Assembly: GCA_041664625.1 (NCBI GenBank)
Contig: JBAYKK010000004.1
Location: 2,343-66,342 of the forward strand
Direction of reading: 5' to 3'
DNA from: Minisyncoccota bacterium
GTDB lineage: Bacteria; Patescibacteriota; Minisyncoccia; Phycocordibacterales; WO2-35-19
Length of the DNA stretch: 64,000 nt
Under the pieces are notes generated by a model that worked only from the letters and a program-made list of their open reading frames with translations, had not been told where the DNA came from and searched no databases. Numbering within the stretch: the first letter of the stretch is position 1; each line of letters begins with the position of its first letter. The position numbers and the translations under genes were made by a program. Shown in pieces: positions 3,053 to 36,009 of this stretch.

Positions 3053-3538
3053 GTGTATAATATTATTATGTTAATCAACTGGGACTTAGCGGTTTTTTTT
3101 ATTCCTTTTATATCATTAGGGGTGGCTTTGATTTCTCTGATTTTAGCCCTGATAATACATGTGAGGATTAAAAGGATTTTTAGGAGTGCGACCTCATCTG
3201 ACATCGAAAAGCTTCTAAAATTACACTCCAAAACTCTTGAAGATTTCATAAGATTCAAAGCCGAATCAGAAATCTACACCAAAGCTTTGAACGAAAGAAT
3301 AAAGAAAAAAATAATTAACGCTTCAACCATAAGATTCAACCCATTTCAAGGCGAAGGTATCGGTGGCAACCAAAGCTTTTCAGTGAGCCTGGCAGATGAA
3401 GAAGGCAACGGTGTAGTCATCACCAGTATGCACACCAGAGAGCGGACCAACGTCTTTGCCAAGCCTATTCAAAACTGGAAAAGCGAATACGAACTGAGCG
3501 AAGAAGAAAAACAAGCCATAAAAAACCAACAAAAATAA
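3053..3538 (+). CDS. DUF4446-like small membrane-anchored protein
   Basis: 161 aa; N-terminal TM; 'RFNPFQGEGIGGNQSFSVSLADEEGNGVVITSMHTRERT' resembles DUF4446 family. Confidence 0.4.
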   Translation: MYNIIMLINWDLAVFFIPFISLGVALISLILALIIHVRIKRIFRSATSSDIEKLLKLHSKTLEDFIRFKAESEIYTKALNERIKKKIINASTIRFNPFQGEGIGGNQSFSVSLADEEGNGVVITSMHTRERTNVFAKPIQNWKSEYELSEEEKQAIKNQQK

Positions 3539-5047
3539 ATGACTCAAAACAAAAATACAGAGAAATCAAATTTGGAAGCTCGACCACCAGTAGTGGTTAT
3601 CATGGGTCATATCGACCACGGCAAATCCACTTTACTTGATTACATAAGGAAAACCAACACTACCGAAAAAGAAGCTGGTGGTATCACTCAACATATTTCT
3701 GCCTACGAAGCCGAATGCAAAATCGGTGATCAAACTAGGAAAATAACTTTTTTGGACACCCCTGGGCACGAAGCTTTTTGCTCAATCAGAGCTCGAGGTG
3801 CTGACATCGCCGACATAGCAGTGCTCATAGTTTCTGCCGAAGATGGTGTCAAACCTCAGACTCTTGAAGCATTGAACTGTATCAATAAAGACGCTATGCC
3901 GTTTATAATCGCCCTAAACAAAATAGACCGCCCAGGTGCCGATATTGATAAAGTCAAAACCGCACTGGCCGAAGCTGGAGTTTTGGTAGAAGGTTGGGGT
4001 GGCAAGATACCAGTAGTCGCTATCTCTGGCAAAACCGGCGAAGGTGTGCCCGATCTTTTGGAAATAATCGCTCTGCAATCTGATATCGAAGAATTAAATG
4101 GTGACACTTCTCTCTTGGCAGAAGGTTTCGTCATCGAAAGTGATCTCAACCCCAAACAAGGTATTTCTGCCACTCTCATAATCAAAAACGGATCTTTAAA
4201 AACTGGGCTTTTTGTTTCGACTGCTGGCGCTTACGCTCCAGTCAGAGCTATCAGCAATTATAAAAACGAGAGCATCACTGAGGCAACTTTTTCGAGCCCT
4301 ATCAAAATAGTAGGCTGGAACGCTCAACCCATGGCCGGTTTCGAATTCAAAACTTTTGCAAAAAAAGAAGAGGCTATAGAATTCGCTGCAAAAAACTTAG
4401 ATTTGAAAGAAAAAGTTACCTCGAGAAACATACCCGAGGGTTCTGCTTTTTTGGAAGTGATCGTCAAAGCGGATACTTTTGGATCATTAAACGCTGTAGA
4501 AAATGAATTACAAAAATTGGGTAATGAAAAAATGTCAGTCAAAATAATTTCCAAAGGTATCGGCGCAATAACCGAAAAAGATCTCAAGACCGCGACTATC
4601 AAAAACACTTTGGTTTTAGGTTTCAATATAGAAGCAGACAAGAGTGCCGAGATACTAGCTCTCCGCAACAACACCGAAATAAAAACTTACAAAATAATTT
4701 ATGAACTTATTGACTACGTCAAAGAAAAGATCAAACAAAATACTCCAGTAGAAACCGTCAAAACCGTCACCGGCCTAGTCAAAATAATCAGGATTTTTGG
4801 CAAAAACAAAGACAAGCAAGTGATCGGTGGCAAAATAGAAGATGGCGAAATTAAACTAGGAAGCCCAGTGGAAATAATAAGAAGAGAGGCCCTGATCGGT
4901 ACCGGCAAAATCAAAGAACTGCAAGTGCAAAAAATAAAAACCGATATCGTCAAAGCTGGTAGTGAATTTGGCATGATGTTAGATTCAAAGATAGAAATCG
5001 CTCCTGGTGACATGCTCCAAGCCACTTCTTTAATCAAACAAGAATAA
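3539..5047 (+). CDS. infB: Translation initiation factor IF-2 (short form)
   Basis: 502 aa; GTPase G1 'GHIDHGKST', G3 'DTPGHEAF', G4 'NKID'; IF-2 C-terminal domains. Confidence 0.9.
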
Positions 5048-5048
5048 A

Positions 5049-5095
5049 ATAACTCACCCCAAACCCCTCTCTTACATTAAGAGAGGGGAAAAATA
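5049..5095 (+). terminator. Intrinsic terminator after infB; also a copy of a palindromic repeat element
   Basis: Palindrome cccctctcttacattaagagagggg followed by A/T-rich run; same 40-nt element occurs inverted at 47158-47197. Confidence 0.6.
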
Positions 5096-7663: not shown

Positions 7664-8260
7664 ATGAATGAATATGGTTTTCAAACTCAGCCCAAGGAAA
7701 AACACAATGTTTTTGTGAGTTTTCATAATAAAGATCAATATTATAGAGATCAATTTGATACTCTGTTCGGGCATCTATTCAATAGCAGATCTGTTGACGT
7801 AGGAGATATAGACCCCGAGAATGAAGACGAGTATATAAAAAAACTAATCCAAGAGAAGCACATAGAACCCTCAAGTGTCGTCTTTGCTTTGTATGGCAAA
7901 GAAACTCACCAACGCAAGCATGTTGATTGGGAAGTTTCTGCGGCTCTAAATAAAAAAGTGGGAGGCCATAAAGGTCTCGTAATTATGTTGATTCCAGGTT
8001 TCCCCATTGCTCCGTATAATGCGTTTAACCAATATGACGAAAGTGTAATATTCCCATATCTACACCCTCGCACTGCTGCAAATCTTAAAAGTGGTTATGC
8101 TGATCTTTACTATTGGCCAGGCCTCTTTACAAATTTTCCCGGAGTTCAAACATTCCCAATGGAAGATATTATCAAGAAAGCTTTCCTCAAGAGAGATAGC
8201 CACGAGCATTTGATTGATAATGGCGATATCCAATATAAAAGAAATCTATCATGGAACTAG
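7664..8260 (+). CDS. TIR-like domain protein (ThsB/DUF1863-type)
   Basis: 198 aa; 'NVFVSFHNKDQ' N-terminal TIR strand motif, 'SSVVFALYGKETHQRKHVDWEVSAAL' matches ThsB-type TIR core (cf. ThsB 'VFFSFHYQD', 'VTCVLIGSQTFNRRWVRYEI'). Confidence 0.6.
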   Translation: MNEYGFQTQPKEKHNVFVSFHNKDQYYRDQFDTLFGHLFNSRSVDVGDIDPENEDEYIKKLIQEKHIEPSSVVFALYGKETHQRKHVDWEVSAALNKKVGGHKGLVIMLIPGFPIAPYNAFNQYDESVIFPYLHPRTAANLKSGYADLYYWPGLFTNFPGVQTFPMEDIIKKAFLKRDSHEHLIDNGDIQYKRNLSWN

Positions 8261-8943
8261 CGAGTACAACTCTAATTAATTTATTTTCCGTATCTCTAAA
8301 TAAGTATCATTTACTATTTGATGTGAACCCTTGGTTAGTAGTAGGGGTGGTTTTATTAGCGCTACTTTTTATATTTGTTCGATGGCGTTTCGGGAAAATG
8401 CGTGGCCCTAATTTTGAAATTGATGCAGCTGAGATGGGAATCGGCCCTGGTAAAATTTCCTTCAAGCCAAATCTCAAAGATCAGGAAATCGCCTACAAAA
8501 TCTGGGTTGAGTTGAGTACAAGAAAGATTGGCCTTGATATTGATCTAAAACATGATGTCATTGCTGAAGTCTACGATTCATGGCACAGCTTCTTCTTGAT
8601 AACTCGAGAATTGATAAAAGATATTCCAGTAAATAAGGTGAAGAATAAAAGCACAAGAGAGATTATTGCTCTGTCTATTAATGTGCTTAACAAGGGTCTC
8701 CGCCCTCACCTCACAACTTGGCAGGCACGCTTCAGGCATTGGTATGAAAGACAGATTGAAAAGAAAGAGGATAGTGATATCGATCCGCAATTTATTCAAG
8801 CAAAGTATCCGCAATTTGAAGAGTTAAAAACTGATTTATTAGAGGTAAACAAGAGGCTTATTGCTTATAGAAAAAAGATGCATGAACTTGTCCTTGGTAA
8901 ATCAAAAGATGGAGAGGAGTTGTCAGAAAAAATTGTCTCCTAA
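8251..8943 (+). CDS. Membrane-anchored protein of unknown fold, translationally coupled to the TIR gene
   Basis: 230 aa; start overlaps TIR stop by 10 nt; one N-terminal TM helix (PWLVVGVVLLALLFIFV), ~180-aa soluble C-terminal domain with no family assignable by eye. Confidence 0.45.
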   Translation: MELASTTLINLFSVSLNKYHLLFDVNPWLVVGVVLLALLFIFVRWRFGKMRGPNFEIDAAEMGIGPGKISFKPNLKDQEIAYKIWVELSTRKIGLDIDLKHDVIAEVYDSWHSFFLITRELIKDIPVNKVKNKSTREIIALSINVLNKGLRPHLTTWQARFRHWYERQIEKKEDSDIDPQFIQAKYPQFEELKTDLLEVNKRLIAYRKKMHELVLGKSKDGEELSEKIVS

Positions 8944-10259
8944 ATTATCTTTACCTCCCTCCCACTCACTTGAATCCTGCTCTTGAGGCAATCCAGTAGC
9001 TCTCTTTTCTCCCACATAGTACCCTCTTGGAGAAGATACTTGGCATAGTTACGAATATCTATATCGACTACCTTTATTTTCTCCACTTTTTGTCCAAGAA
9101 GACTGGATTGGAATTTTTTATATCGCCCTACTTCAACTTTAATCTTTTCCTTCATTCCAATCTCGTCCAGATCAATTTTGTCCATTAGTTTGGAGAATTG
9201 CTGAATTAAATCTTTCTCTTCTATATATTTCGCCTTGCAGTGCTTATTCTTGGATCTGGAGCATCCATAGTATATGTATTTGTGAACATTGCCATTTTGC
9301 TGATGCTTATATTTTTCGCAAGCGGTTATGCCAGAACCGCACAAGGAGCAAGTCATGAGTTTGGTAAAAGCGTACTCTTTACCGTAATCTTTCATCACAT
9401 GCTCCGAAATATTTTCCTGGGTTTTGTCGAAAAGCTCTTTGGTGATAATTGGCTCATGCTTGCCTTGATACCATTTACCGCTTCCTGCCGGATATTCAAA
9501 TGTACCGTAGTAGAAGTGGCAGCGAAGTGTTAAGTATATGTTACCGAGAGCCAAAAATTTGTTGTTTTTAGTTTTAAACTTGATCTCATCTTTTAGCCAT
9601 TTATGCACTCGTCTGCCAGACCAGTTTTCATAAGCCACTTTTTCAAACATTTTCCTGACTATAGGTGCTCTGTAATGATCAACTTTAACCTGACATTTCT
9701 CATCTTTATTTTTGCTGTTTAGGTATCCAACTGGAGCCGGAGCTGGCCAAAGTCCCATCTCGCATCTAGCTCTCAAACCTCTTTTAACATTTTCAACCTT
9801 GTTGTCATTCTCGAGTTTGGCCTGACTTCCTAAAATCATGAGAAGAAATTTCTCGTTAGGATTGTTTGTAAATTTCTGACCTCCATTGGTTCGGATTTCT
9901 CTGAGTAATCCTTGATCCATTAGGTCCACGATTCTGCCAAGGTCTCCGGCATTTCTTGAAATCCTGTCCGGTGCCCAAGTTAAAATTCCGTCAAATTTTC
10001 CTTGTTTTATTTCCTCCACAATCTCGTTAAAAACAGGTCTCTGTCCCGCTTCTTTAGCAGAATGAGATTCTCTCTTTGTAACCACGATATCCAAACCATT
10101 TTCAGCTGCCATTCTTTCCATTTCTTTAACTTGGCTTTCTATGCTCAAAATTTGTTTATCCTCTTCCTCGGTGCTTTTACGAGAATATAAACAATATTTG
10201 ATCTTTGTTGGGACTACCACTTTCGTTTGAGTTCCCAAAGGACTTTGCGTTGTTTGCAT
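8940..10259 (-). CDS. Large serine recombinase (resolvase/invertase N-domain + recombinase + zinc ribbon)
   Basis: Catalytic 'YCLYSRKSTEEED...SIESQ' resolvase motif, recombinase domain, C-terminal Cys-rich ribbon; start at M10 supported by AAGGAA RBS (six-frame ORF extends to 10286). Confidence 0.85.
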   Translation of the reverse strand: MQTTQSPLGTQTKVVVPTKIKYCLYSRKSTEEEDKQILSIESQVKEMERMAAENGLDIVVTKRESHSAKEAGQRPVFNEIVEEIKQGKFDGILTWAPDRISRNAGDLGRIVDLMDQGLLREIRTNGGQKFTNNPNEKFLLMILGSQAKLENDNKVENVKRGLRARCEMGLWPAPAPVGYLNSKNKDEKCQVKVDHYRAPIVRKMFEKVAYENWSGRRVHKWLKDEIKFKTKNNKFLALGNIYLTLRCHFYYGTFEYPAGSGKWYQGKHEPIITKELFDKTQENISEHVMKDYGKEYAFTKLMTCSLCGSGITACEKYKHQQNGNVHKYIYYGCSRSKNKHCKAKYIEEKDLIQQFSKLMDKIDLDEIGMKEKIKVEVGRYKKFQSSLLGQKVEKIKVVDIDIRNYAKYLLQEGTMWEKRELLDCLKSRIQVSGREVKII

Positions 10260-10397
10260 ATTCCTTAAATTAGCTTGTATACCCAAGGAATGACGCTAAT
10301 CTCTATAAGAGTCTAGAGCATCTCGAGTTGGTAAGGTGTTTATACTCGCTCTTCAAAATGCTTTAAAATTGTGGCTTAAAGTGATAGTATTTCAATA

Positions 10398-13300
10398 ATG
10401 GAAATTGACCAAGATACATCTAAAAAAGTATTGGTTTTTATAAAAGAAAATCCTGGCAGTAAGGCACGGAAGATTTCATCTGTTCTTGATTTGGATAAAA
10501 AGGAAGTCAATAAATTACTCTATGGACCCCTCAAAGGCCAATGTAGACAAGATTCTGCGTACAACTGGTATCTAAAAGAAGATCTAAAAACAGAAGCGAT
10601 TACATCTATCAAACAAACGGTAAATACGCCTTTAGCTAGGCTATGCAATTATTATTCATCCTGTATTGCTGAGGATACCGGAGCAAAAGTTAGAGTGTTT
10701 GCTCAAAGTAAGTATGGGTTGGATTACAAGGAACTGGAAACAATTCCATCTTCTGAAGATACAAGCGAAATTTTTGAGTCATCAGAAGTACAAAATTTTT
10801 TAAATGAATCCCGAAAAGATAAATCCCAAATGTTATATTTTGGATATCCAGTATTAATGTCCCATGCACGTTCTAGCAAATCAGATTGGGAAGGATATTT
10901 TGTCAGTCCAATATTTCTATTTCCGATAAAAGTTGAAAACGACGGAGTAAATCTGGATCTAAATTTTCCGACTATAAATCGAGAAGTCTTGGAGCGATAT
11001 ACAGATGCAAAAGGCGAGGAGTTGATGAAAGAACTTGTTACCCTAGAAGAGGAACTCGGTATTTCAGGAGAAGGAGAACAACCTGAACTAGATGAGTTGA
11101 TTCAACGACTAAAGGTTTTACGTCCTGAATGGCAATGGGTTGAAGATCCTGATCCATACAACCTCGTGAAAGACCCTCCATTACGGGAATGTACTTCGGA
11201 AGGAATTTTTAATCGTGCAGTTGTAGTTAAAGTTCAGGAAGCTCCAAATAATTTTACGCAAGGTCTAGAATACGAATTAAGTCAATTGGCAAGGTTGTCT
11301 GAAAATGACTACAAAGACACAGCGTTGGGTCAATGGATATATAGAAATATCGGAGACGCAGGCGAGAAAAATTTAAACTCTTTGCTTGAGGTGTTCCCTA
11401 TGAATCTAGAGCAACGCGAAGCTGTTCAGAATGCACTAGTAAATGATCTGACCATTATTACCGGACCACCAGGTACCGGAAAATCACAAGTAGTTACTAA
11501 CTTACTTATCAATGCCGCTTGGCAAAAAAAGCGAGTGTTATTTGCAAGTAAAAATAACAAAGCTGTTGATGTAGTTGAAAGTCGTGTGAATAATATCGGA
11601 ACACGTCCAATTCTTTTACGTCTTGGTGGCAAGGGTGATTATCAAGATCAATTAGTTTCCCATCTTTCAAACTTGCTTGCTACAACCGTGGATCAGCAAG
11701 ATGAGCGGGAATTTGCAGAACGAAAACAAGAATTTGAAGATGTGCATGCCGAGCTGTTAAATATTGACTCGCAAATTAATGATTTAGTAATTCTTAGGAA
11801 TAAAGTCGATGAATTAGATAGAGATATTAATGATGCCAGAAATGATCTATCAGAGGATATTTTTGCTCTTATAAAAAATAAAAGATTTTTAAGTGTTAAA
11901 CCTGAAATTGAAATTTTGCTTAATAAATTAGAGTATGCGCTAAAGCCCAAAATTTCGTTTTTTGAAAAAATTGGAGAATTTCTTTTTGGTAGCAAAATAA
12001 GTAACGATATTATTGCAAGAACTACAGAGTTACAAGGTACTCTATCTGAACTTGATATTAGTATTCCAACACAGCCATTAAATAAGTACTCGCAGCAAGT
12101 TTGGGTTGTATTTAAAGATGAGTTACAGCATCGCTGGAATCAAACAGAGCGAGTAAGAAAATATTTTTATTCTCTAGAAGAACTGCAAAAATCTGATTCG
12201 TTGGAGACATTAACTAAACAAAGACTGAATCTTTTAAATAGGATGTCCGATAAATCTTCAGTACTTTGGAAGTTGTGGCTCAAGTTGCAAATTGGGCGAT
12301 TGTCACACGATGACAGATCTCTCCTTAGCCAATATAGATCTACTTTGCAAATGGCCTCTGGCTCTAATCCTACACAAAGTGTCTGGAGAAATTACTATAG
12401 CCAATCACAAAAAATTTCTCATATTCTATCCACTTGGGCTGTAACGTCACTATCAGCAAAAGGTAGAATTCCGCTTAGTAAAAATATATTTGATCTGGTA
12501 GTTTTCGACGAATCAAGCCAGTGTGATATTGCTTCTGCACTCCCACTTCTATATAGGGCAAAGCAAGCTGTAGTTATTGGAGATCCTAAACAGCTGTCTC
12601 ATATTAGTTCAATCTCTAAAAAACAAGACGAGCGTCTTTTGGAAAAATATGGTTTATTAGATACCCATAGCGATTGGGCATATTCATATAATTCTCTATT
12701 TGATCTTGCGGCTGGTCTTTCGCGCGGTACTGGTATTATTGATTTACGAGATCACTATAGGTCTCATGCAGATATTATTAATTTTTCAAATCAATTCTTT
12801 TATAAAGGCCGCCTTAGAATCGCAACTCGATACGATTCACTTAAACGGCCAAAGGACGAAAATGCAGGTATTAGGTGGATAAATGTCGAAGGTCGTGCAG
12901 AAAAAGCACCACTGGGTAGTGGATCACAAAATAAACAAGAAGCTGAGGTGGTAGTTACAGAGCTACGAAGACTTTTTGAGCAAGGATATAAAGGAACTAT
13001 TGGTGTTGTTAGTCCATTTAGGGCACAAGCCAATTTGATACGTAAATTAATCAACGAGGATAGTGAACTCCTTGGATGGTTATCTACATGCGAATTTATA
13101 AGTGAGACTGTTCATAAATTCCAAGGGGATGAGCGAGATATCATTATATTTTCACCTGTCATTTCTAAAGGCATGCCTAATGGTTCAACGCTATTTCTAC
13201 AGAAAACGGGGAACCTGTTTAATGTGGCTATTACTCGCGCGCGAGCAATGTTAATCGTTATTGGCGACCACGAAGCCGTACTTCACTCTGATATTTTGTA

Positions 13301-13727
13301 CATGGAAAAGTTTGCCCAACACGTCAATGAAATTGGTAAACAAAAAGAATATAAAATAATACAAAGTACCAGTCTCGGTCCAGAGTATCCGACAGTTAAA
13401 AATCCAGAGTTAGTTTCAGATTGGGAACATATTTTTTATAAAGCTTTATACGATGCTGGGATATGTCCAATTCCTCAGTATCAGGAAGAAATGTATATTC
13501 TAGATTTTGCAATTTTTGACGGAGACAAAAAACTTAATATAGAAATAGACGGAGAACATTATCATAAAGATTGGACTGGAGAATTATGCTACAGAGATCA
13601 AATGAGAAACCAGAGAATGTATGAATTGGGTTGGGATGTGATGAGATTCTGGGTGTATGAAGTCAGGGATGATCTAGACGGTTGTATCAAAAAAATTAAT
13701 GATTGGATAAGTCCAAGTAATAAGTAA
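10398..13727 (+). CDS. Superfamily-1 (Upf1/DNA2-like, AAA_11/AAA_12) helicase fused to C-terminal DUF559 (Vsr-like) endonuclease; N-terminal winged-helix-like region
   Basis: 1109 aa; Walker A 'GPPGTGKS', 'VVFDESSQ', 'VHKFQGDERD', motif VI 'VAITRAR'; C-terminus 'LDFAIFDGDKKLNIEIDGEHYH...GWDVMRFW' = DUF559. Confidence 0.8.
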   Translation: MEIDQDTSKKVLVFIKENPGSKARKISSVLDLDKKEVNKLLYGPLKGQCRQDSAYNWYLKEDLKTEAITSIKQTVNTPLARLCNYYSSCIAEDTGAKVRVFAQSKYGLDYKELETIPSSEDTSEIFESSEVQNFLNESRKDKSQMLYFGYPVLMSHARSSKSDWEGYFVSPIFLFPIKVENDGVNLDLNFPTINREVLERYTDAKGEELMKELVTLEEELGISGEGEQPELDELIQRLKVLRPEWQWVEDPDPYNLVKDPPLRECTSEGIFNRAVVVKVQEAPNNFTQGLEYELSQLARLSENDYKDTALGQWIYRNIGDAGEKNLNSLLEVFPMNLEQREAVQNALVNDLTIITGPPGTGKSQVVTNLLINAAWQKKRVLFASKNNKAVDVVESRVNNIGTRPILLRLGGKGDYQDQLVSHLSNLLATTVDQQDEREFAERKQEFEDVHAELLNIDSQINDLVILRNKVDELDRDINDARNDLSEDIFALIKNKRFLSVKPEIEILLNKLEYALKPKISFFEKIGEFLFGSKISNDIIARTTELQGTLSELDISIPTQPLNKYSQQVWVVFKDELQHRWNQTERVRKYFYSLEELQKSDSLETLTKQRLNLLNRMSDKSSVLWKLWLKLQIGRLSHDDRSLLSQYRSTLQMASGSNPTQSVWRNYYSQSQKISHILSTWAVTSLSAKGRIPLSKNIFDLVVFDESSQCDIASALPLLYRAKQAVVIGDPKQLSHISSISKKQDERLLEKYGLLDTHSDWAYSYNSLFDLAAGLSRGTGIIDLRDHYRSHADIINFSNQFFYKGRLRIATRYDSLKRPKDENAGIRWINVEGRAEKAPLGSGSQNKQEAEVVVTELRRLFEQGYKGTIGVVSPFRAQANLIRKLINEDSELLGWLSTCEFISETVHKFQGDERDIIIFSPVISKGMPNGSTLFLQKTGNLFNVAITRARAMLIVIGDHEAVLHSDILYMEKFAQHVNEIGKQKEYKIIQSTSLGPEYPTVKNPELVSDWEHIFYKALYDAGICPIPQYQEEMYILDFAIFDGDKKLNIEIDGEHYHKDWTGELCYRDQMRNQRMYELGWDVMRFWVYEVRDDLDGCIKKINDWISPSNK

Positions 13728-13778
13728 TCAAACACTAAATAAAAATATATTATTTAGAATTTTTATTTAAAAAAATTT

Positions 13779-14579
13779 ATGTTCATACCAAAAAAAATTC
13801 TTTGTGCTGTCGGCGGGGTTGTAGTGTTAGTCGCTGTTTTCTTAATTGGGGTCTCGTCTGGAAATAAAAGTGAAAATTTAATATCAGAACAAACTGCGAC
13901 AGTGGTAGATTCAGATACGGCTAATACCAGTATTACTCCCAAATCTGGTGAGTTGGTCAAAGTGGTCAGAGTAGTAGATGGCGATACCATTAATGTTGAA
14001 ATAAATGGCAAAGTAGAGCCGGTGCGATATATAGGTATTGATACTCCAGAGACAGTTGATCCACGCAAGCCGGTACAATGCTTCGGAGTTGAAGCGTCAA
14101 AGAAAAATAAAGAATTAGTGGATGGTAAAATGGTGAGATTGGAAACTGATATCACTGATCGCGATAAATACAATCGACTACTTCGTTATGTTTGGCTTGA
14201 TGACAAGCTAATAAATCAGGCGTTAGTAGAACAAGGTTACGCTAAGTCATACTCATACCCTCCAGATATTAAATACCAAGATAAATTTGTGGTAGCCGAA
14301 AAACAGGCCAGAGAAAATAAACTGGGTCTTTGGACCGCTTGTGCTTCAGAAACAACTACGACGACAGTTCCAACTCCAACACAAACATCTTCATCTACTT
14401 CCGATCCTTCCTGTACCATTAAGGGTAATATAAGTTCGTCAGGAGAGAAGATTTATCACATGCAAGGTTGTGGTTCGTATTCAAAAGCCACCATAGATGA
14501 AAGTCGTGGTGAAAAATGGTTTTGTACAGAAACAGAGGCCCAATCTGCAGGTTGGAGAAAAGCTTTAAATTGTAATTAA
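13779..14579 (+). CDS. Secreted/membrane-anchored thermonuclease (SNase-like) with Cys-containing C-terminal domain; paralog of 54154-54954
   Basis: 266 aa; N-terminal TM; SNase motifs 'VVDGDTINV', 'RYIGIDTPE', 'NRLLRYVWLD', 'KLGLW'; ~88% nt identity to second copy. Confidence 0.8.
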   Translation: MFIPKKILCAVGGVVVLVAVFLIGVSSGNKSENLISEQTATVVDSDTANTSITPKSGELVKVVRVVDGDTINVEINGKVEPVRYIGIDTPETVDPRKPVQCFGVEASKKNKELVDGKMVRLETDITDRDKYNRLLRYVWLDDKLINQALVEQGYAKSYSYPPDIKYQDKFVVAEKQARENKLGLWTACASETTTTTVPTPTQTSSSTSDPSCTIKGNISSSGEKIYHMQGCGSYSKATIDESRGEKWFCTETEAQSAGWRKALNCN

Positions 14580-14587
14580 AATATAAA

Positions 14588-15577
14588 ATGGATCAAGAAA
14601 ACAATAAAAACAAAAAACGTCTTTGGGCTACGATTACAGGTATTGTCATTACCATATTAGCCGCATTCTTGTATTTAATATTTTTTCAAACAGCTGAATC
14701 ACAAGCAGAACCGGAGAGGTTTGTAATGCCTCTAAAATCGGATCAAACTGCTTTCGGTTTACTAAAATCTCAAGAATTTATAAAAAATAATTTTGGTTTT
14801 GGGATAGCAAGCTTGCTAAGAGGCCTGGGAGGTGTTGATCCTGGTGGTTACAAAATTTCCAAATCAATGACCGCGTGGCAAATTGCTGGAATTTTGAATC
14901 AGGAACCGTATATGAAATGGGTGGTGATACCGGAGGGATTAAGAAAAGAAGAAATTGCTGATTTGCTTACCACTACTCTCGGTTGGTCAGAAAAAGAAAA
15001 GAGTGATTGGATAAACACTTACACTGCTATGGATTTTGATCACACAGAGGGTGTATATTTCCCCGACACTTACCTCATTCCGGTAGACGAATCTCCGCTT
15101 GATGTAGCTAAAAGATTAAGAGCGAAGTTTGAAGAAAAATTCGCTCCGTATGCAAAAGAAGCGCTAGCCGAAGATATTAAATGGACGACCCTTATAAAAC
15201 TTGCTTCTATCATTCAACGAGAGGCAAACGGACATGACGATATGCCACTAATAGCAGGTATTCTATGGAATAGATTGCTCAAAAATATGAAGCTTGAGGT
15301 TGATGCCACCTTGCAGTATGCAAGGGGTGACAAAGGAGATGGTTGGTGGGCGCCAATTACACCTGCCGAAAAACAAATCGACTCACCTTACAACACTTAC
15401 AAGAACACCGGCTTGCCGTTTCATCCAATCTCCAATCCCGGTCTTTCCGCGATAGAAGCAGCCCTGCATCCTACCTCCACGAATTGTTTATATTATCTCC
15501 ACGACAGTTCCGGAGAAATCCATTGTTCAGATACGTTTGAGGGCCACAAGCAAAATATTACTAATTATTTAAAATAA
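14588..15577 (+). CDS. mltG: MltG/YceG-like endolytic murein transglycosylase; paralog of 54963-55952
   Basis: 329 aa; N-terminal TM; 'YNTYKNTGLPFHPISNPGLSAIEAALHP...LYYLHD' YceG-type motifs. Confidence 0.7.
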   Translation: MDQENNKNKKRLWATITGIVITILAAFLYLIFFQTAESQAEPERFVMPLKSDQTAFGLLKSQEFIKNNFGFGIASLLRGLGGVDPGGYKISKSMTAWQIAGILNQEPYMKWVVIPEGLRKEEIADLLTTTLGWSEKEKSDWINTYTAMDFDHTEGVYFPDTYLIPVDESPLDVAKRLRAKFEEKFAPYAKEALAEDIKWTTLIKLASIIQREANGHDDMPLIAGILWNRLLKNMKLEVDATLQYARGDKGDGWWAPITPAEKQIDSPYNTYKNTGLPFHPISNPGLSAIEAALHPTSTNCLYYLHDSSGEIHCSDTFEGHKQNITNYLK

Positions 15578-15581
15578 AAAT

Positions 15582-15737
15582 ATGAAAAAACCGAAATTCA
15601 TAAATCTTACAGTATTTATAATCTTTTTTGGAACAGCGCTTTTTGGAGCATTTCAGAAACAAAATTGGATAGAGGTAACACTCTATTTGGCTTTGGGCGT
15701 TCTGTTTCTTTGGGCAGATAGCCAAAGAAAAACTTGA
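15582..15737 (+). CDS. Small hydrophobic protein (51 aa)
   Basis: Two predicted TM segments; located between mltG paralog and acidic peptide gene. Confidence 0.25.
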   Translation: MKKPKFINLTVFIIFFGTALFGAFQKQNWIEVTLYLALGVLFLWADSQRKT

Positions 15738-15861: not shown

Positions 15862-16005
15862 ATGGACTCTGATGAAATTTTAGAGCTGGTAAAAGAAGGT
15901 ATTATTGAACCAGACCAGGTCGAGGATTTTGAAAACCTTGACCCCGAAATTCAAGAATTGGTAGCCAATAGCGATTTAGATATAGATGAAGCTTTGGGTT
16001 TGTAG
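15862..16005 (+). CDS. Small, highly acidic protein (47 aa)
   Basis: MDSDEILELVKEGIIEPDQVEDFENLDPEIQELVANSDLDIDEALGL; paralogous copy at 61652-61796 is interrupted by a stop codon. Confidence 0.4.
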   Translation: MDSDEILELVKEGIIEPDQVEDFENLDPEIQELVANSDLDIDEALGL

Positions 16006-16279
16006 CAAAAAACTCCCGTCTCCGGAAGTTCTTTGCGGGAATAGCAAGCTACTTTGAAGGGAGAAAAGATTTCGTCGCTTGTCTCACACTTTGTTCGCTT
16101 CCCGACTCTCAATTATGCTCCTGTTATGCTCAGCCGAGCTCTTGGTACATCCGTAAACCAGTCCGTTGCTTTTTACCGCACCCTCTGTCTTTAGACAAAT
16201 CCACCGCACAAGGCGAATGACGGTCTTATTACAACCCCCGTTCCAAGCTAAGCTTGAAAATACCAATTCTCGCTATTCC
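16005..16279 (-). ncRNA. Unclassified structured ncRNA (~275 nt), copy 1; not RNase P, not tmRNA
   Basis: Reverse-strand -10 box (TAGAAT at 16286-16291), TSS ~16279; 5'/3' closing helix GGAAUAGCGAG/CUUGCUAUUCC; terminator hairpin UCCCG...CGGGA + U6 at 16005-16040; ~95% identical copy at 61320-61595. Confidence 0.55.
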
Positions 16280-16297
16280 GCTGTAATTCTATCAAAT

Positions 16298-16930
16298 TCA
16301 TTGCCATGGCACCACTTTCAGCATGGGCCAGATATGGATCCATTTTTCTACTTTCTTCATGTATATGTCCTCGGTTATTTTCTTTTTGTTTGGTCTAACC
16401 ACTAATTGCATTAGATCGTTTAATCTATAAGGAGCGTAAATTTTAAGTTCGTCATTCTCCAATCTAACTCCTACGGCAGTAGCAGTGGTTGGGTATTGAG
16501 ATATTGCATCTTCGATTGAAAGAAACGGGTCAATCGGAAATCCAAAATGCTTTTCATACCACAAATGGACCCTGGCTTGATTTCGTATTTCAATAGAAAT
16601 ATCTCCGAATATTTTCTTGCTTTTCTTTATGAACTTATCCTCCGCCTCATATGAAAGGTCAGAGTCGTCAAAATACACTAAATCATAATCGCCAATTCCA
16701 TAATTCAAATCGTATCTATGTTTATGGTTCCAAATCGTCTGAGCCAAGCAACCAGCCGTCAAATACCAGTTTTTCATTTCCAAAGAAGGCGCTCTATAAA
16801 GTATCTCTTTTATTACCTCATTTTGGAGCAAAATTTCCTTGAAATATTCCATTGACCAGAATATATCAGTTTGGGAGTGGGTAGACAAGAATCCAGCCAT
16901 TGGTAATTTTTTCATACTTGCATACCACAT
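16298..16930 (-). CDS. Putative nucleotidyltransferase-family protein
   Basis: 210 aa; 'GIGDYDLVYFDDSDL' resembles the Gly/Asp-rich NTase-fold active site; weak assignment. Confidence 0.3.
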   Translation of the reverse strand: MWYASMKKLPMAGFLSTHSQTDIFWSMEYFKEILLQNEVIKEILYRAPSLEMKNWYLTAGCLAQTIWNHKHRYDLNYGIGDYDLVYFDDSDLSYEAEDKFIKKSKKIFGDISIEIRNQARVHLWYEKHFGFPIDPFLSIEDAISQYPTTATAVGVRLENDELKIYAPYRLNDLMQLVVRPNKKKITEDIYMKKVEKWIHIWPMLKVVPWQ

Positions 16931-17253
16931 AAGTCATTGTTTTATATTTCTGATTTTGATATTCTGATATGGACAATTGAATAAGAATGGCCTAAACCAG
17001 TGCTAAAACATTGGCATGGCAAAAAGTCCTTGGAAGATAAAGAACCCATCATGGGGTCGTCTTCCAAGGCCATATCGGGAAACCGGTATGAGAGGCTTCG
17101 ATCCTCTATCCGTGGTGGGCTTTTTGTTGTTCAGATTATTAAAATATGGGAAACTTACAAAGTAAAAGAATTTGATTAATATGTACACTCTCTTTGACAA
17201 TTTCAAAGAATAATGTATTATTAAATTATTCAATAATCATTAGCATTATTACC

Positions 17254-20145: not shown

Positions 20146-23100
20146 ATGAAAAACAAATTATCGAAAAATATTAAAACAATTTCAAGCTATGTGCTTGCTT
20201 TATCAATCGTCGTTTCGAGTTTTGGTTTTGTCCCGATAGCACAAGCGGACATAACATCAACATTAACGATTGGCTCTCAGACGGCTGCATATAACGATAT
20301 TATAACTGTTCCCGTAACAGCAAATATTGTAAATATTCAAGGAATTCAACTTAGCATAAATTATCCTGAGTCAATGTTGAGATATGTTGGGTGTTCTTCT
20401 ACTCATATTGTCTGTTCTACTGATGTGGCTTCTTCCACTAATAAAATCAATCTTACCTGGTATGATGTGTTAAATTTTTTGACTTTAAATAATGAAGATT
20501 TGTTGTCGTTACAGTTTCAAGTAGTAAGTTCTGGTGTTACCGATACAGTTTTATCTTTTACACCTGTAGAGGTAATAAATAATATTGGTACTGACATTAC
20601 TGGGAACATTACCTTTAATTCAGGTACACTCACTTTAAATCCTGTCGCAACGCTCTCTAGTGTAGCCATTACTCATCCGGCGAATAAATTAACTTATACC
20701 GTCGGTGATGCATTAGACATTACGGGCTTAGTAGTTACCGGAACCTATAGTGATGCATCTACTGAAGTTGAGACTATTACAACAGCAAACGTAACCGGTT
20801 TTGACAGCTCGGTTCCAGCGACTGGTCAGGTTTTGACCATTACTGTTGAGGGGCAGACTGTGACTTATACAATTGATGTAGTTGATGCCCCCGACACCAC
20901 ACCGCCAACAATATCACTTTTTTATCCAGCTGATAATGCAACCAATGTATCAGTGGATGTCCAACCCACTTTGACTTTTTCTGAAGCCATTGATACCTCT
21001 ACAATGAATGGAGAAAACATTGAATTGCGTGAGTATGCCACACTTTCATCTGATGCAGAAAAAGTACCTGCGGCACTAACTTATTCTATAGGAAACAAAG
21101 TGACTTTTATTTTGTCTTCTCCTCTGGAACACAACAAACAGTATTACTTTTTCGTTGGGACGGGAGTTAAAGATATTGCCGGAAACAGTTTTGCCGCTGA
21201 CACATGGTACCATGCTCAAAGAGCAAATCATGAATTTACCACTGAAGCCCTGCCAGTCACACTGTCAAGTCTTACAATTACACATTTAGCAAACAAACTT
21301 TCTTATTTCGTGGGTGAACCATTAGATATCACAGGATTAGAAATTACTGGACATTATAGCGATGGCTCTACTGAGATTGTGACACCAGTTGTTGTGACAG
21401 GCTTTGATAGTTCAGCACCTGTTACTGGTCAGGTTTTGACTGCCACATTTGGAGGGAAAAGCACGACTTACATGGTTGATATTATTGTTGATGTTGGATC
21501 AATTGGTTCAACCAAAACAATCACTGCTTTTACTATTCCCGGTCAAATAGGCGAAACAATAATTAATGAGGAAGATCATACTGTTAATTTAACGATGCCT
21601 TATGGAACCGATAAGACTAATCTTATTCCGAATATTGTTATTGACGGTTCATCTATTGATCCTAATACCGGCGTTGCTCAAGACTTCACAAATCCGATTA
21701 TTTACAAAGTTACTGCAGCAGATACTACAACCCAAGATTATATAGTAACGATAAATGTGGCGGCCAATTCTGCCAAAGATATTGTTTCTTTCAGTTTTCC
21801 AGAGGGTAATGGTGTTATTACTGGAACCAATATTGCAGTAACCGTTCCATTTGGTACCGATATTACTGATCTCGTGCCGACCATTGTACTTTCCGGAGGA
21901 ACAATTAGCCCATTAAGCGAAGTGGCTCAAAATTTCACAAACTCGGTAACCTATACAGTTACGGCATCTGATGGTTTAACCAAAACGTATACAGTAACTG
22001 TCACTGTGGCTCCTAATAGTGCAGCAAATATTCTCTCCTTCAATTCTACCTTTCCCGTTGCAGTGGGTGTTATCAGCGGGGCCAATATTAATTTAACTTT
22101 ACCTTTCGGGACAAGTTTGGTTGATCTTCCGATAACTATTTCACTTTCTACTGGTGCTTCTGTCCTTCCAGCCACCAGCAATACAACTTTTACTGATGGA
22201 GTTGCAACAATTTATACGGTTACAGCCCAAGATGGTGTAACGACACAAAATTACTCAGTGACAGTAAATGTCGCTCCTAACACCGCCAAAGAAATTACCT
22301 CATTTAATTTTGAGGGCTTAACCCCGAGTGTCACTGGTATTATTAATGGGACCAATATTACTCTGAATGTGCCTTATGGTACTGATATAACCAATCTCGT
22401 CCCTACTATAGGAATTACTGGATCATCAGTAAATCCGGTAAGTGGTATAACTCAAGATTTTACTAACCCATCAACCTATACTGTTACTGCGGCTGATGGT
22501 ACAACTCAAAATTATACAGTAACGGTAGTTATCGCAGCACCATCTGACCTAACATTACTGGCTGCCGCTATTACCTCAGCACAGGCACTACACGATGCTG
22601 CCGTAGAAGGAAATTCTGTTGGTGAATATCCAGCACCTCTTAAAGCTAACTTACAAACAGCCATTAATACTGCCTCTACCATAACTCCTGCCTCTGCTCA
22701 GTCTGTCGTAGATGCTGCAGTTACCACCCTAAACGCCGCTGTTGCTACATTTGAAGCCGGTGTAGTTCTACCTGATACCACAGCACCAGTCATTACTCTT
22801 AATGGATCTTCACCTATGAATATGACCATTGGTCAAACCTATACGGAGCCGGGTGCTACTGCAACTGATAATGTAGACGCCTCTGTGTCAGTCACCGTTG
22901 GAGGAGACAATGTTGATACTTCTGTTGTTGGTACTTATGAAGTGACTTATAATGCCGTTGATGCCGCTGGCAATCATGCAACTCAAGTAGTTCGCACAGT
23001 AGTTATTTCTGATCTGGTTGTTTCTACAGAAGAAACAGCGAGTCCAACTACTGACAGCATTACTATCACTTGGACTACAAGCCACCCATCAACAAGCAGA

Positions 23101-23766
23101 GTAATTTATGACATCGTTTCTCATAATCCAATAATTGATCCTGCTCCAAATTACGGATATTCCAATTCTACCATTGAAGATGCAACACTTGTTACCGCAC
23201 ATTCAGTAACAGTAAATGGACTTTCATCTGGCACCACCTATTACTTCAGACCGGTATCTCATGGTTCGCCTGAAATTGTCGGGGATGAGGTCAGTGTTAC
23301 TACAACGACACCTACTCCGGTTTCCAGCTCTTCTGGTAGTAGAAGTGGTGGAAGCAGCAGTTCATCTGGTAGCCGACATTTAGTAGTTACAACTCCGGTC
23401 GTTGCCCCAACTGTTGGAATTGTTCTTGGATCAAGTGCTTATAACTTCACTCGTAATCTTTCTGTCGGTTCTTTTGGAAATGATGTCACAGAATTACAAA
23501 ACAGGTTAATTTCAGCTGGAGTTTATTCGGGTCCTATAACAGGATACTTTGGATCGCTGACTCAAGCTGCGGTTCAAGCTTTCCAAGCTAAATACGGAAT
23601 CAGTTCGACCGGTTTTGTTGGACCACTCACTCTTGCTCAGCTCAACCAAGGAACTCAGGCTGTTCTCGGAGTTCAGACTACTAACTTTTCTGCCATACTT
23701 GCCCAACTTGATTTCATAAGAACTCAAGCTATGCAAATTTTGCAGACTCTCCAAAATATGCAATAA
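20146..23766 (+). CDS. Large cell-surface protein with ~5 tandem Ig-like repeats, Ser/Gly linker and C-terminal peptidoglycan-binding (PG_binding_1-like) domain
   Basis: 1206 aa; signal peptide; repeated ~85-aa module 'ITAF..P...G.I....HT..LTVPFGTD.T.L.PTI..S.G..V.P.SG...FTNP..YTVTA.DG.TQ.Y.VTV'; C-terminus 'YNFTRNLSVGSFGNDVTELQNRL...GPITGYFGSLT'. Confidence 0.7.
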   Translation: MKNKLSKNIKTISSYVLALSIVVSSFGFVPIAQADITSTLTIGSQTAAYNDIITVPVTANIVNIQGIQLSINYPESMLRYVGCSSTHIVCSTDVASSTNKINLTWYDVLNFLTLNNEDLLSLQFQVVSSGVTDTVLSFTPVEVINNIGTDITGNITFNSGTLTLNPVATLSSVAITHPANKLTYTVGDALDITGLVVTGTYSDASTEVETITTANVTGFDSSVPATGQVLTITVEGQTVTYTIDVVDAPDTTPPTISLFYPADNATNVSVDVQPTLTFSEAIDTSTMNGENIELREYATLSSDAEKVPAALTYSIGNKVTFILSSPLEHNKQYYFFVGTGVKDIAGNSFAADTWYHAQRANHEFTTEALPVTLSSLTITHLANKLSYFVGEPLDITGLEITGHYSDGSTEIVTPVVVTGFDSSAPVTGQVLTATFGGKSTTYMVDIIVDVGSIGSTKTITAFTIPGQIGETIINEEDHTVNLTMPYGTDKTNLIPNIVIDGSSIDPNTGVAQDFTNPIIYKVTAADTTTQDYIVTINVAANSAKDIVSFSFPEGNGVITGTNIAVTVPFGTDITDLVPTIVLSGGTISPLSEVAQNFTNSVTYTVTASDGLTKTYTVTVTVAPNSAANILSFNSTFPVAVGVISGANINLTLPFGTSLVDLPITISLSTGASVLPATSNTTFTDGVATIYTVTAQDGVTTQNYSVTVNVAPNTAKEITSFNFEGLTPSVTGIINGTNITLNVPYGTDITNLVPTIGITGSSVNPVSGITQDFTNPSTYTVTAADGTTQNYTVTVVIAAPSDLTLLAAAITSAQALHDAAVEGNSVGEYPAPLKANLQTAINTASTITPASAQSVVDAAVTTLNAAVATFEAGVVLPDTTAPVITLNGSSPMNMTIGQTYTEPGATATDNVDASVSVTVGGDNVDTSVVGTYEVTYNAVDAAGNHATQVVRTVVISDLVVSTEETASPTTDSITITWTTSHPSTSRVIYDIVSHNPIIDPAPNYGYSNSTIEDATLVTAHSVTVNGLSSGTTYYFRPVSHGSPEIVGDEVSVTTTTPTPVSSSSGSRSGGSSSSSGSRHLVVTTPVVAPTVGIVLGSSAYNFTRNLSVGSFGNDVTELQNRLISAGVYSGPITGYFGSLTQAAVQAFQAKYGISSTGFVGPLTLAQLNQGTQAVLGVQTTNFSAILAQLDFIRTQAMQILQTLQNMQ

Positions 23767-25083: not shown

Positions 25084-25255
25084 GCCTTTAATAATGCCAC
25101 AATGTCTCCAATTATCCAGATGTTGGTAACTCCTCTTCGCAACCTTCTATATCTAAGCTAAGATACCCAACGATAGCAAAAAGTGCTATCATAACTTTGA
25201 CAACTTAATAGCAAGAGGAAGCCTAAACCATCCAGTCGATGGCATGGCATCCGAA

Positions 25256-25391
25256 GCAAGAACAACGCACGACACAAGAAAACCCGTTATTAGGGCGTGT
25301 CGTGCGTTACCAGGGGAAACTCTGGTAGAGGTTACCGCAAGGTACCTTCCTAGTAGCGGGCTTTGTTGTTCTTGTTTTAATCGCACGACAA
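25256..25391 (+). promoter_or_regulatory. Structured 5' leader (riboswitch-like) with alternative pairing that can sequester the translation-start region of 25392-26048
   Basis: CGCACGACA occurs at 25267-25275 and again at 25382-25390 (abutting the ATG); complementary GUGUCGUGCG at 25297-25306; enclosing helix CAAGAACAAC/GUUGUUCUUG; internal hairpins with GNRA-type loops (GCAA; GGGAAAC). Confidence 0.3.
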
Positions 25392-31264: not shown

Positions 31265-31300
31265 AATTGTTTTTTAAAATCAAATGTGATATAATACATT

Positions 31301-31738
31301 TAGGTTTTCATTTCGACAACTACTATCGGGTCGCCTTCGCTCTTACAGAGCTTTGGCGGACTAATAGAGGAAAGTCCGAACACATACCAATTCTGTCTAC
31401 TTATTGTAAACAAAATTGGAATAGTAGCGGGTAACACCCGTCGTCCGCGAGGATAGAGATGCGAACAGTGACGCCAAAGCCGAAAGGCAGAGGGTTCCCT
31501 GTCTGCCGACAAGGCAGGCCTAGTGGAATAATCCAATGGCAACATTGGGGTGCAACGGCTAAATTCTTACTTGTGTGCAAGGCCGTGTCGCCTACTCTTT
31601 ATTTTAAAGGATAGGTGAAGTGCCGCTTGATCCGTCTGGTAACAGACGAGACAGATAAATTGTTGTTAAACCTGCCTTCGCTAAAAGCTTCGGCGTGGTA
31701 AACCAGAATTCGGCTTATGAGAATGAAAACCTGAAATA
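31301..31738 (+). ncRNA. rnpB: RNase P RNA
   Basis: P4 strands 'AGAGGAAAGUCCGAAC' and 'ACCAGAAUUCGGCUUAU' (consensus GGAAAGUCCGGGC / ACAGAACCCGGCUUA); 'GCGGGUAACACCCG' and 'GGUGAAGUGCCGC' conserved blocks; P1 pairing GGUUUUCAUUUC/GAAUGAAAACC; TG-extended -10 'TGTGATATAAT' at 31286-31296; terminator 31741-31775. Confidence 0.75.
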
Positions 31739-34439: not shown

Positions 34440-34778
34440 TTAACAGAAAAATCGGCCGTCACACGATATATCAAAAGTAGCCAAAACTAAACGCAAAATA
34501 CCGTAGACACTAAACATTATGAAAAGACCGATCACTCCCCACTTCACATTGTCTCTGTTTTTGGTCAAGTCACTACTGTCGGCTTTATAAATCATCTCAG
34601 CTATACCATAAAACAAAAAAACTGTAGCAATTGTAAAACCTAAAATAATAAGTGGATTTAAAATGAGAGTAGCTATTTTTCCCAAAAGCTCGGTGATTGA
34701 AAGCATAGATATATTATAACACCCCGTAGTAGATTTTTGCATAGCACTTTGTGTGCAAAACACAATGCAAAAATTCAC
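34440..34778 (-). CDS. Small two-TM protein, VirB2/TrbC-pilin-like topology (paralog 1 of 7)
   Basis: Hydrophobic N-segment, charged loop, conserved C-terminal TM 'KWGVIGLFIMFSVYGILRLV'. Confidence 0.4.
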   Translation of the reverse strand: MNFCIVFCTQSAMQKSTTGCYNISMLSITELLGKIATLILNPLIILGFTIATVFLFYGIAEMIYKADSSDLTKNRDNVKWGVIGLFIMFSVYGILRLVLATFDISCDGRFFC

Positions 34779-34880
34779 TACGGGGTAACAAACTCCCCCA
34801 AAGCAAGCAAACTAAAGTGTGGCACAACTAAACAAAAACCCCGAGAACATCGGGGTTTTTGTTATTCAGATTTAACTAAA

Positions 34881-35219
34881 TTAATTAGGTATAAGAGGAC
34901 TTACTGAAGGCGCAGCCTCTTCGTCGATACCGACAGCTGTACCGATAAATCTCACCAAACCCCAAACTGAAGCCATGACGAATAGAGCCACAACTCCCCA
35001 AATCATAGTTTTCTTAGCAGCATCTTTGTCGTCTTCTTTGCCAAAAATGTATTTGACCAAACCGTAGAAGAAACCAAGAAGGGCCAAAGCAAACATAATC
35101 GGAATGATTTTGTTTATGATATTGCCGATATCAGTGATCAAACCATCAATGTTGCCCAAAGCGGCAAAAGAAGTAAGAGGTAAAGCCAAAGCTAAACCAG
35201 TCCACATTAATTTTTTCAT
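34881..35219 (-). CDS. Small two-TM protein, VirB2/TrbC-pilin-like (paralog 2)
   Basis: Signal peptide; 'MIWGVVALFVMASVWGLVRFI' conserved C-terminal TM. Confidence 0.4.
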   Translation of the reverse strand: MKKLMWTGLALALPLTSFAALGNIDGLITDIGNIINKIIPIMFALALLGFFYGLVKYIFGKEDDKDAAKKTMIWGVVALFVMASVWGLVRFIGTAVGIDEEAAPSVSPLIPN

Positions 35220-35330
35220 CTTTTTTTTGTAATTAATAATTAATAAATTTTAATAATTAAATAAACGACCTATTTTAATTTATTTCATAATACAACTTTT
35301 TACACACAAACTCAATGAAGTAATCCACAG

Positions 35331-35693: not shown

Positions 35694-35722
35694 AAATTTT
35701 AAATACTAATAATTATAATTTG

Positions 35723-35995: not shown

Positions 35996-36009
35996 ATTTT
36001 ATTTTTTAA

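Follow-up and report, generated by a model that had tools for sequence, protein, structure and literature searches.

A candidate stand-alone, structured noncoding RNA gene with sibling copies in a narrow Paceibacterota clade

The subject of this analysis is a pair of similar minus-strand segments within a stretch of 64,000 nucleotides (nt), here called the window, from a Minisyncoccota bacterium (contig JBAYKK010000004.1 of assembly GCA_041664625.1), which segments an earlier sequence-only reading had proposed to be two copies of a structured RNA gene of no recognized class. On comparative sequence grounds, the copies are shown to belong to a real, strand-specific, structurally constrained, noncoding, multicopy gene family. 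We consider it probable that the copies are stand-alone genes, each encoding a stable noncoding RNA (ncRNA) that works in trans and through its structure, with a few sibling copies per genome in a narrow clade of the Paceibacterota. The RNA is new to Rfam, and its class does not match any catalogued family.

Self-BLAST of the window paired positions 16003-16297 with 61318-61612 at 93.6% identity over 295 nt, and the 275-nt cores of the two copies, both on the minus strand, are 95.3% identical, in keeping with the roughly 95% identity claimed beforehand. Each copy is a self-contained RNA gene—copy 1 at 16005-16279 (-) and copy 2 at 61320-61594 (-)—whose parts succeed one another in a fixed order along the minus strand: a TG, one base, a -10 hexamer, six unconserved bases, the start, the fold, and the terminator. 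In copy 1 the extended -10 element TG-a-TAGAAT, as read from the sequence, occupies 16286-16294 (-), with TG at 16294-16293 and TAGAAT at 16291-16286, and is followed by a 6-nt spacer (16285-16280) and by G16279 as the first conserved base; this -10 element overlaps the final codons and the stop of the upstream nucleotidyltransferase (NTase) gene (stop 16298-16300). In copy 2 the corresponding TG-c-TATAAT lies at 61601-61609 (-), with TG at 61609-61608 and TATAAT at 61606-61601. The transcript of copy 1, as delimited by the inferred +1 at G16279, the U-tract, and the boundaries of the conserved block, would comprise about 273 nt (16007-16279), and that of copy 2, starting at G61594, would extend over 61322-61594; the two score 329 and 341.6 bits, respectively, with R1, a covariance model built from the homologs, which model also matched the opposite strand at 15945-16036.

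The conserved start, GGARUAGYGAG in the family and GGA(A/G)UAGCGAG in the window copies, pairs with CUUGCUAUUCC near the 3' end to form P1, the helix that joins both ends of the RNA. In copy 1 the 5' strand of P1, GGAAUAGCGAG, lies at 16269-16279 and the 3' strand at 16038-16048, which location agrees with the sequence, the consensus fold, and the pairing counts; in copy 2 positions 61594-61584 pair with 61363-61353. One base after the 3' strand of P1 comes the terminator hairpin, ACUUCC(G/A)-GAGA-(C/U)GGGAGU, and then a run of six U residues (U6), so that the closing helix followed by hairpin and U6 that the sequence-only reading had described could be read in both copies. The intrinsic terminator of copy 1 covers 16005-16036 (stem 16029-16023/16018-16012, GAGA loop, U6 at 16012-16007), and that of copy 2, which a minus-strand scan calls as a terminator, covers 61351-61320 with the U6 at 61327-61322. 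The core stem in copy 1 is ACUUCCG-GAGA-CGGGAGU, and the flanking A-tract and U-tract lengthen it to 14 base pairs (bp), which length suggests that this terminator may work in both directions; it abuts the stop codon of a convergent open reading frame (ORF) of 47 amino acids (aa).

The conserved block spans from TGnTAnAAT to just past the U-tract in all 12 distinct sequences of the family, and the flanks are unrelated. The upstream sequences fall into seven unrelated classes, all of which keep the TG together with A2 and T6 of the -10 hexamer, while the hexamer is separated from the first G by six freely varying bases; a kept -10 box beside a freely varying 6-nt spacer is the signature of a selected promoter with a fixed start point. 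We call a promoter here because TGnTAnAAT is conserved across those seven contexts, a simple consensus promoter scanner having called none at the copies and a -35 box being absent. At the other end, the hairpin and the U6 are present in 12 of 12 sequences, and conservation ends there. The block is thus delimited by its own promoter and intrinsic terminator, as is a stand-alone structured small RNA (sRNA) gene, and the claim that each copy carries both elements is sustained across the whole family. As we infer, RNA polymerase would start at the extended -10 promoter without recourse to a -35 box, would begin transcription at the conserved G, and would stop at the hairpin-U6 terminator to yield the RNA of about 273 nt.

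The 12 sequences consist of the two window copies and ten homologs from groundwater metagenomes and one metagenome-assembled genome (MAG), and identical copies occur on five contigs bearing the same NTase (L numbers below are our handles for retrieved sequences). A search through the family of the 47-aa ORF led to one diverged homolog, L014; of the three matches to a degenerate motif in 185,579 GTDB species representatives, two were due to chance and one was true, namely L028, a MAG labelled Saccharibacteria; and an 18-mer scan of JGI metagenomes gave nine true matches out of 28, many of them from Hainich groundwater, these collection scans needing an exact match to a motif of the 3' domain, so that distant relatives would be missed. 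When R1 was run over 422 kb of retrieved loci and the window, no extra divergent or partial copies were found. From this sample the family looks confined to one narrow Paceibacterota clade; one protein of the window is assigned by NCBI to a Candidatus Paceibacterota MAG.

The RNA identity among homologs amounts to 93-98%, or to 80-84% for L066 owing to one insertion, and in the same contig pairs the genes for the NTase, a NUDIX protein, a staphylococcal-nuclease homolog (SNase), and a 377-aa protein are 72-83% identical at the nucleotide level. That the copies are still 93-98% identical where the proteins of the genomes differ by 13-31% points to long-term purifying selection. At the level of sequence comparison, the selection on the family is shown to be strong, with the RNA changing four to five times more slowly than the adjacent proteins. 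Sequence variation touches 29 of the 143 columns in the 5' part of the RNA and 9 of the 102 in its 3' part.

In the consensus fold, the 11-bp P1 closes two domains, one with many hairpins on the 5' side (P2-P8) and one on the 3' side (P9 and P10). In P1, paired in 100% of cells across the 12 sequences, two positions vary, and solely between A-U and G·U and between C-G and U·G. P2 (nt 14-20/132-138) encloses the hairpins P3 (nt 21-39), P4 (41-61), P5 (62-81), and P6 (82-95) plus two weak 3-bp stems; in copy 1 the consensus fold places P2-P6, with a mostly invariant single-stranded stretch, at 16142-16266 (-). P4 never changes, its GUAAUAA loop included, and in P5 a single position of the UUGUGC loop is variable. 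In P3 two pairs have compensatory changes, while P6 has one compensatory pair and a stem extension in L028/L060; the loops of these two hairpins drift (UUA/UUU/UUUU/AUUA/UUUA in P3 and GAAA/UAAA/AAA/GGAAAC in P6). The terminator adds one compensatory G-C/A-U pair, where the sequence-only reading, correct in that the differences between the copies keep the structure, had seen a change from G-C to G·U: the change is a full compensatory one (CCGGAGACGGG vs CCAGAGATGGG).

In the 3' domain, P9 is a long-range 7-bp helix (nt 142-148/173-179; CUCGGCU/AGUCGGG at 16101-16138 (-) in copy 1 as predicted by RNAalifold) with a 24-nt loop containing AGCAUAA twice; being invariant, the helix is without covariation support. 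Its loop received a G-to-U change in L014/L062 and an insertion in L066 that is a perfect 38-nt hairpin, and hairpin insertion in a loop is the usual way for structured RNAs to take extra sequence. P10, which the consensus fold puts at 16056-16092 (-) in copy 1, pairs the purine-rich strand GAAGUGUGAGACAAG with the pyrimidine tract CUUUUCUCCCUUC; its variation is limited to the loop, GCGACGAAA becoming GCUAUAAA in L040/L066, and to one A-U to G·U change. The long junction strand shows a few scattered changes. A kissing interaction between the P5 loop UUGUGC and GCAUAA of the P9 loop was considered and set aside as speculation, the sole variants (L014/L062) weakening the pairing instead of compensating.

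When all 83 pairs are counted in the 12 sequences, 99.6% of the 996 sequence-by-pair cells are standard pairs. Double changes occur in four pairs (8 cells)—two in P3, one in P6, and one in the terminator—compared with none in six of six shifted-register controls, and at most one in 500 shuffles reaches the observed value. The remaining variable stem positions change via G·U. P1, P2, P3, P5, P6, and the terminator vary in pair-preserving ways only, and P4, P9, and nearly all of P10 are invariant. Some 14% of the cells (about 142 of the 996) are G·U; on the complementary strand these would read A·C and be mismatched, so that the fold belongs to the minus-strand RNA. The minimum-free-energy and consensus folds are multi-branched, with eight branch points; the former reaches -88.3 kcal/mol in copy 1 (z = -3.07 versus dinucleotide shuffles), and copy 2 likewise folds better than its dinucleotide shuffles (z = -3.48).

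With respect to known families, the RNA had no match at the gathering thresholds when the whole window was searched with Rfam 15, and still none when permissive filters and a limit of E<=10 were applied to the locus and to three homolog contigs (L028, L051, and L066), in line with the view of an RNA of unknown class. It might be supposed that a highly divergent housekeeping RNA—a relative of signal recognition particle (SRP) RNA, 6S RNA, transfer-messenger RNA (tmRNA), or RNase P RNA—had escaped the models, since an RNA of this size with paired ends would suit, some of its short strings look like RNase P and SRP motifs, and the window's own RNase P RNA, from the Candidate Phyla Radiation (CPR), scores only 48 bits against its family, so that models can under-perform in this phylum. 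We nevertheless hold this very improbable. In the four independent sequences no covariance-model match to SRP RNA (RF00169 / RF01854) was obtained at E<=10, nor did the models of 6S RNA (RF00013 and relatives) match, and the fold is multi-branched and not rod-like; the resemblance to SRP or 6S RNA that had been suggested is thus not supported. ARAGORN found six transfer RNAs (tRNAs) and no tmRNA in the window, Rfam likewise none, and the RNase P model had no match in the RNA at E<=10. Furthermore, the RNA occurs in two or more copies, whereas SRP RNA, 6S RNA, tmRNA, and RNase P RNA are normally single-copy.

The distinction from tmRNA and from RNase P made by the sequence-only reading therefore holds; the RNase P RNA that it placed at 31301, however, lies at 31313-31724 (+), a divergent class A RNA with large insertions (48 bits against a gathering score of 100; E = 3e-13), with a TATAAT box at 31290-31295 ahead of it. 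Certain RNase P-like strings of the RNA (GGUGCGGUAA, ACAGAAG, and AGUCGGG/CGGCU) were also examined: in local alignment and shared k-mers with the window's RNase P and with an E. coli M1 sequence, the similarity was no better than that of shuffles.

Turning to coding capacity, insertions and deletions of 1, 2, and 38 nt among the 12 sequences exclude a conserved reading frame. One may still imagine a messenger RNA (mRNA) that encodes a small peptide, toxic in the manner of type I toxins or regulatory, and that is locked by the pairing of its 5' and 3' ends, in that multiple copies, a length of about 270 nt, paired ends, and an own promoter and terminator are hok- or aapA-type features; but we regard that reading as extremely improbable. 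A conserved AUG is absent, and the only frame with a Shine-Dalgarno (SD)-like sequence, AGGAG-UUG, is without a stop before the terminator; 1-nt deletions break it in L040/L066 and in L044/L051, and the 38-nt insertion of L066 separates the SD-like sequence from the UUG. In addition, the six-frame translation of the RNA compared with 5.8 billion proteins revealed no protein ever called inside it.

The genes next to the RNA differ from copy to copy. Directly upstream of copy 1 stands the NTase gene (NTP_transf_6; 16298-16930 (-); Pfam E = 5e-53), which arrangement recurs in L028, L044, L058, and L060 and thus in five sequences in all, and convergent with that copy is the acidic 47-aa ORF (15862-16005 (+)), with weak SHOCT-like similarity and repeats, whose family comprises 56 clusters in Patescibacteria. 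Copy 2 is flanked on one side by a 196-aa ORF that converges on it and on the other by a divergent copy of the 47-aa ORF that has decayed and has an in-frame stop (61653-61795 (+)). An SppA (Peptidase_S49) gene is found downstream in five or six sequences, and NUDIX and SWIM-domain genes adjoin the RNA in others. The 47-aa ORF occurs on either side of the RNA among homologs, and neither it nor the NTase is an obligate partner: relatives of the former at 66-81% identity have no RNA within 3-4 kb, and homologs of the latter at 77% abut the next gene, leaving no room for the RNA; a Parcubacteria NTase homolog at 59% lies in a ribosomal-protein/secY neighbourhood.

The position of the SppA gene raises the question of whether the RNA is a 5' leader, a riboswitch or attenuator controlling that gene through the terminator, the other copies being orphaned duplicates. 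The architecture is riboswitch-like in that P1 closes a folded domain and the terminator comes one nt later, and a same-strand SppA-type gene is next in L028, L060, L044, L051, and probably L045. However, the next gene lies on the same strand at only six of 13 copies, where leaders would have such a gene in most members, and is convergent at seven, including both window copies, all seven being equally conserved; moreover, the SppA gene of L028/L060 is truncated with the RNA intact, and no alternative anti-terminator pairing was found by inspection. We judge a leader unlikely, and the convergent next gene at seven copies argues for trans rather than cis action.

Beyond the window, the ten further homologs present at least seven upstream and seven downstream contexts in mosaic combinations: copies preceded by the NTase have three different blocks downstream, those followed by SppA have three different blocks upstream, and SWIM occurs in two combinations. 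As with sibling sRNAs, at least two copies reside in a genome, as seen in the window pair and in contig L062, where two copies lie 5.3 kb apart. The L062 copies are 99.3% identical, share lineage-specific substitutions, and are 93-96% identical to those of other genomes, copies from different genomes differing by 2-7%, which mutual identity indicates gene conversion or recent duplication. L044 and L051 have a common right flank and common 3' variants of the RNA, but a different 5' half, as expected from crossovers inside the RNA gene. With regard to copy number we also observed that the Logan unitigs L004 and L005 both end at nt 218 of the RNA, exactly 30 nt after the point where copies 1 and 2 last differ; the repeat has broken the assembly there, which implies that both copies are present in those samples.

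A further reading is a selfish or mobile repeat (a miniature inverted-repeat transposable element, MITE, or a Correia-like element) or an attachment or cargo module of the serine-recombinase islands, conserved through recent spread and not for any function of the RNA: the block has sharp boundaries, stands in many contexts at junctions of variable gene blocks, carries near its ends an 11-bp inverted repeat (P1), and in the window lies 6 and 11 kb from two large serine recombinases that are accompanied by defence cargo. The 3' arm of that inverted repeat, however, is 35 nt inside the block, and no target-site duplication was seen in 12 contexts; the variation is nonrandom, preserving pairs and sparing loops; the high identity is kept between genomes with clearly diverged proteins; and the phage, plasmid, and IMG/VR viral collections gave zero matches. 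No recombinase accompanies the copies on other contigs either, in that tblastn of both recombinases against the retrieved parts (about 2-12 kb) of 11 homolog contigs found none, the contigs being so short that a distant linkage is possible; nor were partial duplications of the RNA resembling attachment (att) sites found in the window. A mobile repeat is consequently improbable in our estimation, and the earlier proposal that the RNA is a backbone component of both integrative elements of the window is unsupported, given the absence of a recombinase from those retrieved parts and at least seven contexts on each side. The mosaic is best explained by homologous recombination between repeated copies, which suffices for the pattern, and not by membership in serine-recombinase islands: as a 275-nt direct repeat the RNA gene would be a substrate for such recombination, which would account for both the mosaic flanks and the homogenization of copies within a genome.

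The recombinases themselves lie at 8940-10286 and 48896-50197, both (-) and beside tRNA genes, and are 69% identical over about 660 nt; their regions (7664-13727 and 48896-54143) hold defence-type genes for a ThsB-like TIR protein, an SF1 helicase fused to a DUF559/MTES_1575 nuclease, an EcoRI-like methylase, a GmrSD-HNH nuclease, and a DUF2726 protein. A segmental duplication of 85% identity (13758-15588 vs 54131-55962) contains the SNase gene and a YceG/MltG gene, and SNase homologs were observed 1.5-3 kb from the RNA in L028, L045, and L060.

As to how the RNA would work, the stem covariation and loop drift of P3 and P6 suggest peripheral hairpins, and the invariant single-stranded and loop elements within the frame closed by P1 would constitute the working surface. 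Most likely, by analogy, these invariant loops and junctions would bind a protein encoded elsewhere, the RNA acting as a scaffold or a sequestering RNA; base-pairing with targets is less likely. In the latter instance the RNA would represent a family of base-pairing sibling sRNAs, which would recognize mRNAs through an exposed invariant segment, such as the UCUUUUCUCCCUUC pyrimidine tract or the AGCAUAA repeats. Such sRNAs are typically encoded by stand-alone genes that end in a Rho-independent terminator, several copies per genome would be in character, and long invariant stretches are predicted to be single-stranded; on the other hand, about 240 nt and many helices are conserved, far beyond what a seed region needs, and the predicted fold has the pyrimidine tract paired in P10. 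We therefore consider this possibility doubtful and return to the stand-alone, structure-dependent RNA as the preferred interpretation.

Against that interpretation several points must be set. The protein scaffold is a guess by analogy, no conserved protein partner having been found, and the same-strand SppA gene downstream of five copies gives a leader role there some residual probability. The double changes affect only four of the 83 pairs, and, with all homologs at least 93% identical, P4, P9, and most of P10 show no variation that could speak for or against them; the shuffle statistics, furthermore, are inflated by the shared ancestry of related sequences. The requirement for an exact motif skews the sample to close relatives and overstates the conservation of that 18-mer, and the start and end positions given for the RNA are predictions.

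Several known systems invite comparison. The orphan large structured bacterial ncRNAs raiA, OLE, and ROOL/GOLLD came from comparative genomics (Weinberg et al., 2017, PMC5737381; cryo-electron microscopy, 10.1101/2024.12.08.627333). Like them, the present RNA exceeds 200 nt, is multi-helix, strongly conserved, and noncoding, and was found solely by sequence comparison; unlike them, it is multicopy and belongs to one Paceibacterota clade, and it has no Rfam 15 match to them; it is also smaller than OLE, ROOL, and GOLLD. With Qrr1-5, CsrB/C, and LhrC1-5, which are sibling (multicopy) trans-acting sRNAs, it shares near-identical copies that are independently promoted and terminated in different neighbourhoods, but it is longer and far more structured than base-pairing siblings, and the GGA-motif enrichment of CsrB was not seen in it by eye. 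It resembles 6S and Bacillus-type SRP RNA in length, paired 5' and 3' ends, and a housekeeping-like evolutionary rate, and departs from the 6S rod with its central bubble and from the helix 8 motif of SRP RNA through its branched fold, the absence of a model match, and its at least two copies per genome. Small, conserved, and placed exactly where conserved gene blocks give way to variable ones, close to defence islands that carry recombinases, the RNA gene recalls the tRNA and tmRNA genes that serve as recombination or integration landmarks; unlike those, it has no att-like duplications in the window and varies in both flanks, not only on the 3' side.

LOOT RNA (RF03000) is likewise an orphan structured RNA of the same lineage, occurring twice in the window (16989-17107 (+), 78.8 bits; 25220-25346 (+), 50.1 bits), but it differs in being about 120 nt long, on the other strand, and unrelated in sequence and fold. 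The first LOOT RNA is divergent from the NTase gene, from whose start it is separated by 60 nt, and precedes the gene of a 973-aa subtilase. In the related Patescibacteria contigs L019-L026, the 47-aa ORF homolog is directly followed, within the corresponding 300-nt gap, by a LOOT-like RNA instead of the present one (at about 3240-3440), beyond which come variable genes including that of an HTH_17 protein. A 12-nt antisense match between the RNA and this LOOT-bearing spacer in L019 was at chance level.

Among the other features, L010 (2343-3451) shows tRNA-like halves split by several hundred structured bases upstream of a 47-aa ORF homolog, possibly because a group I intron interrupts a tRNA gene there; such introns have been reported for Patescibacteria (PMC13011429). 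In the window, five paralogous genes in tandem (34440-36738 (-)) encode membrane proteins of about 90-140 aa, perhaps similar to pilins or VirB2, and this array accounts for the 62-nt repeat 34945-35006 / 35410-35471. A 46-nt inverted match of 95.7% links 5043-5088, at the end of a 502-aa ORF, with 47158-47202, inside the UvrB gene. A 1206-aa surface protein (20146-23766 (+)) has internal repeats of about 280 nt (21727-22001 vs 22240-22526, among others) and a C-terminal peptidoglycan-binding domain, and a 134-nt stretch of its gene matches a peptidoglycan-binding gene at 60297-60430.

Patescibacteria (the CPR) have tiny genomes, usually with single ribosomal RNA and tRNA genes, and the maintenance in such a genome of at least two copies of a slowly evolving 273-nt RNA suggests that what it does is important. 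More than once, bacterial RNAs of large size and high conservation have proved to be ribozymes, protein-regulating scaffolds, or self-assembling particles, and we entertain, as a rather unlikely but more far-reaching reading, that the RNA may be the founding member of a new class of large structured RNAs confined to a lineage of ultra-small symbiotic bacteria. It would then be biochemically active in its own right, for example as a ribozyme, as an assembly made of RNA alone, or as the RNA subunit of a ribonucleoprotein not yet described, and its copies would also act as recombination joints for defence and surface gene blocks. To our knowledge, almost no RNA biology has been described in the Patescibacteria lineage, in which the RNA provides a defined sequence, a fold model, and a promoter for testing; and its position at the borders of variable blocks offers a handle on the reshuffling of defence and surface genes in reduced genomes.

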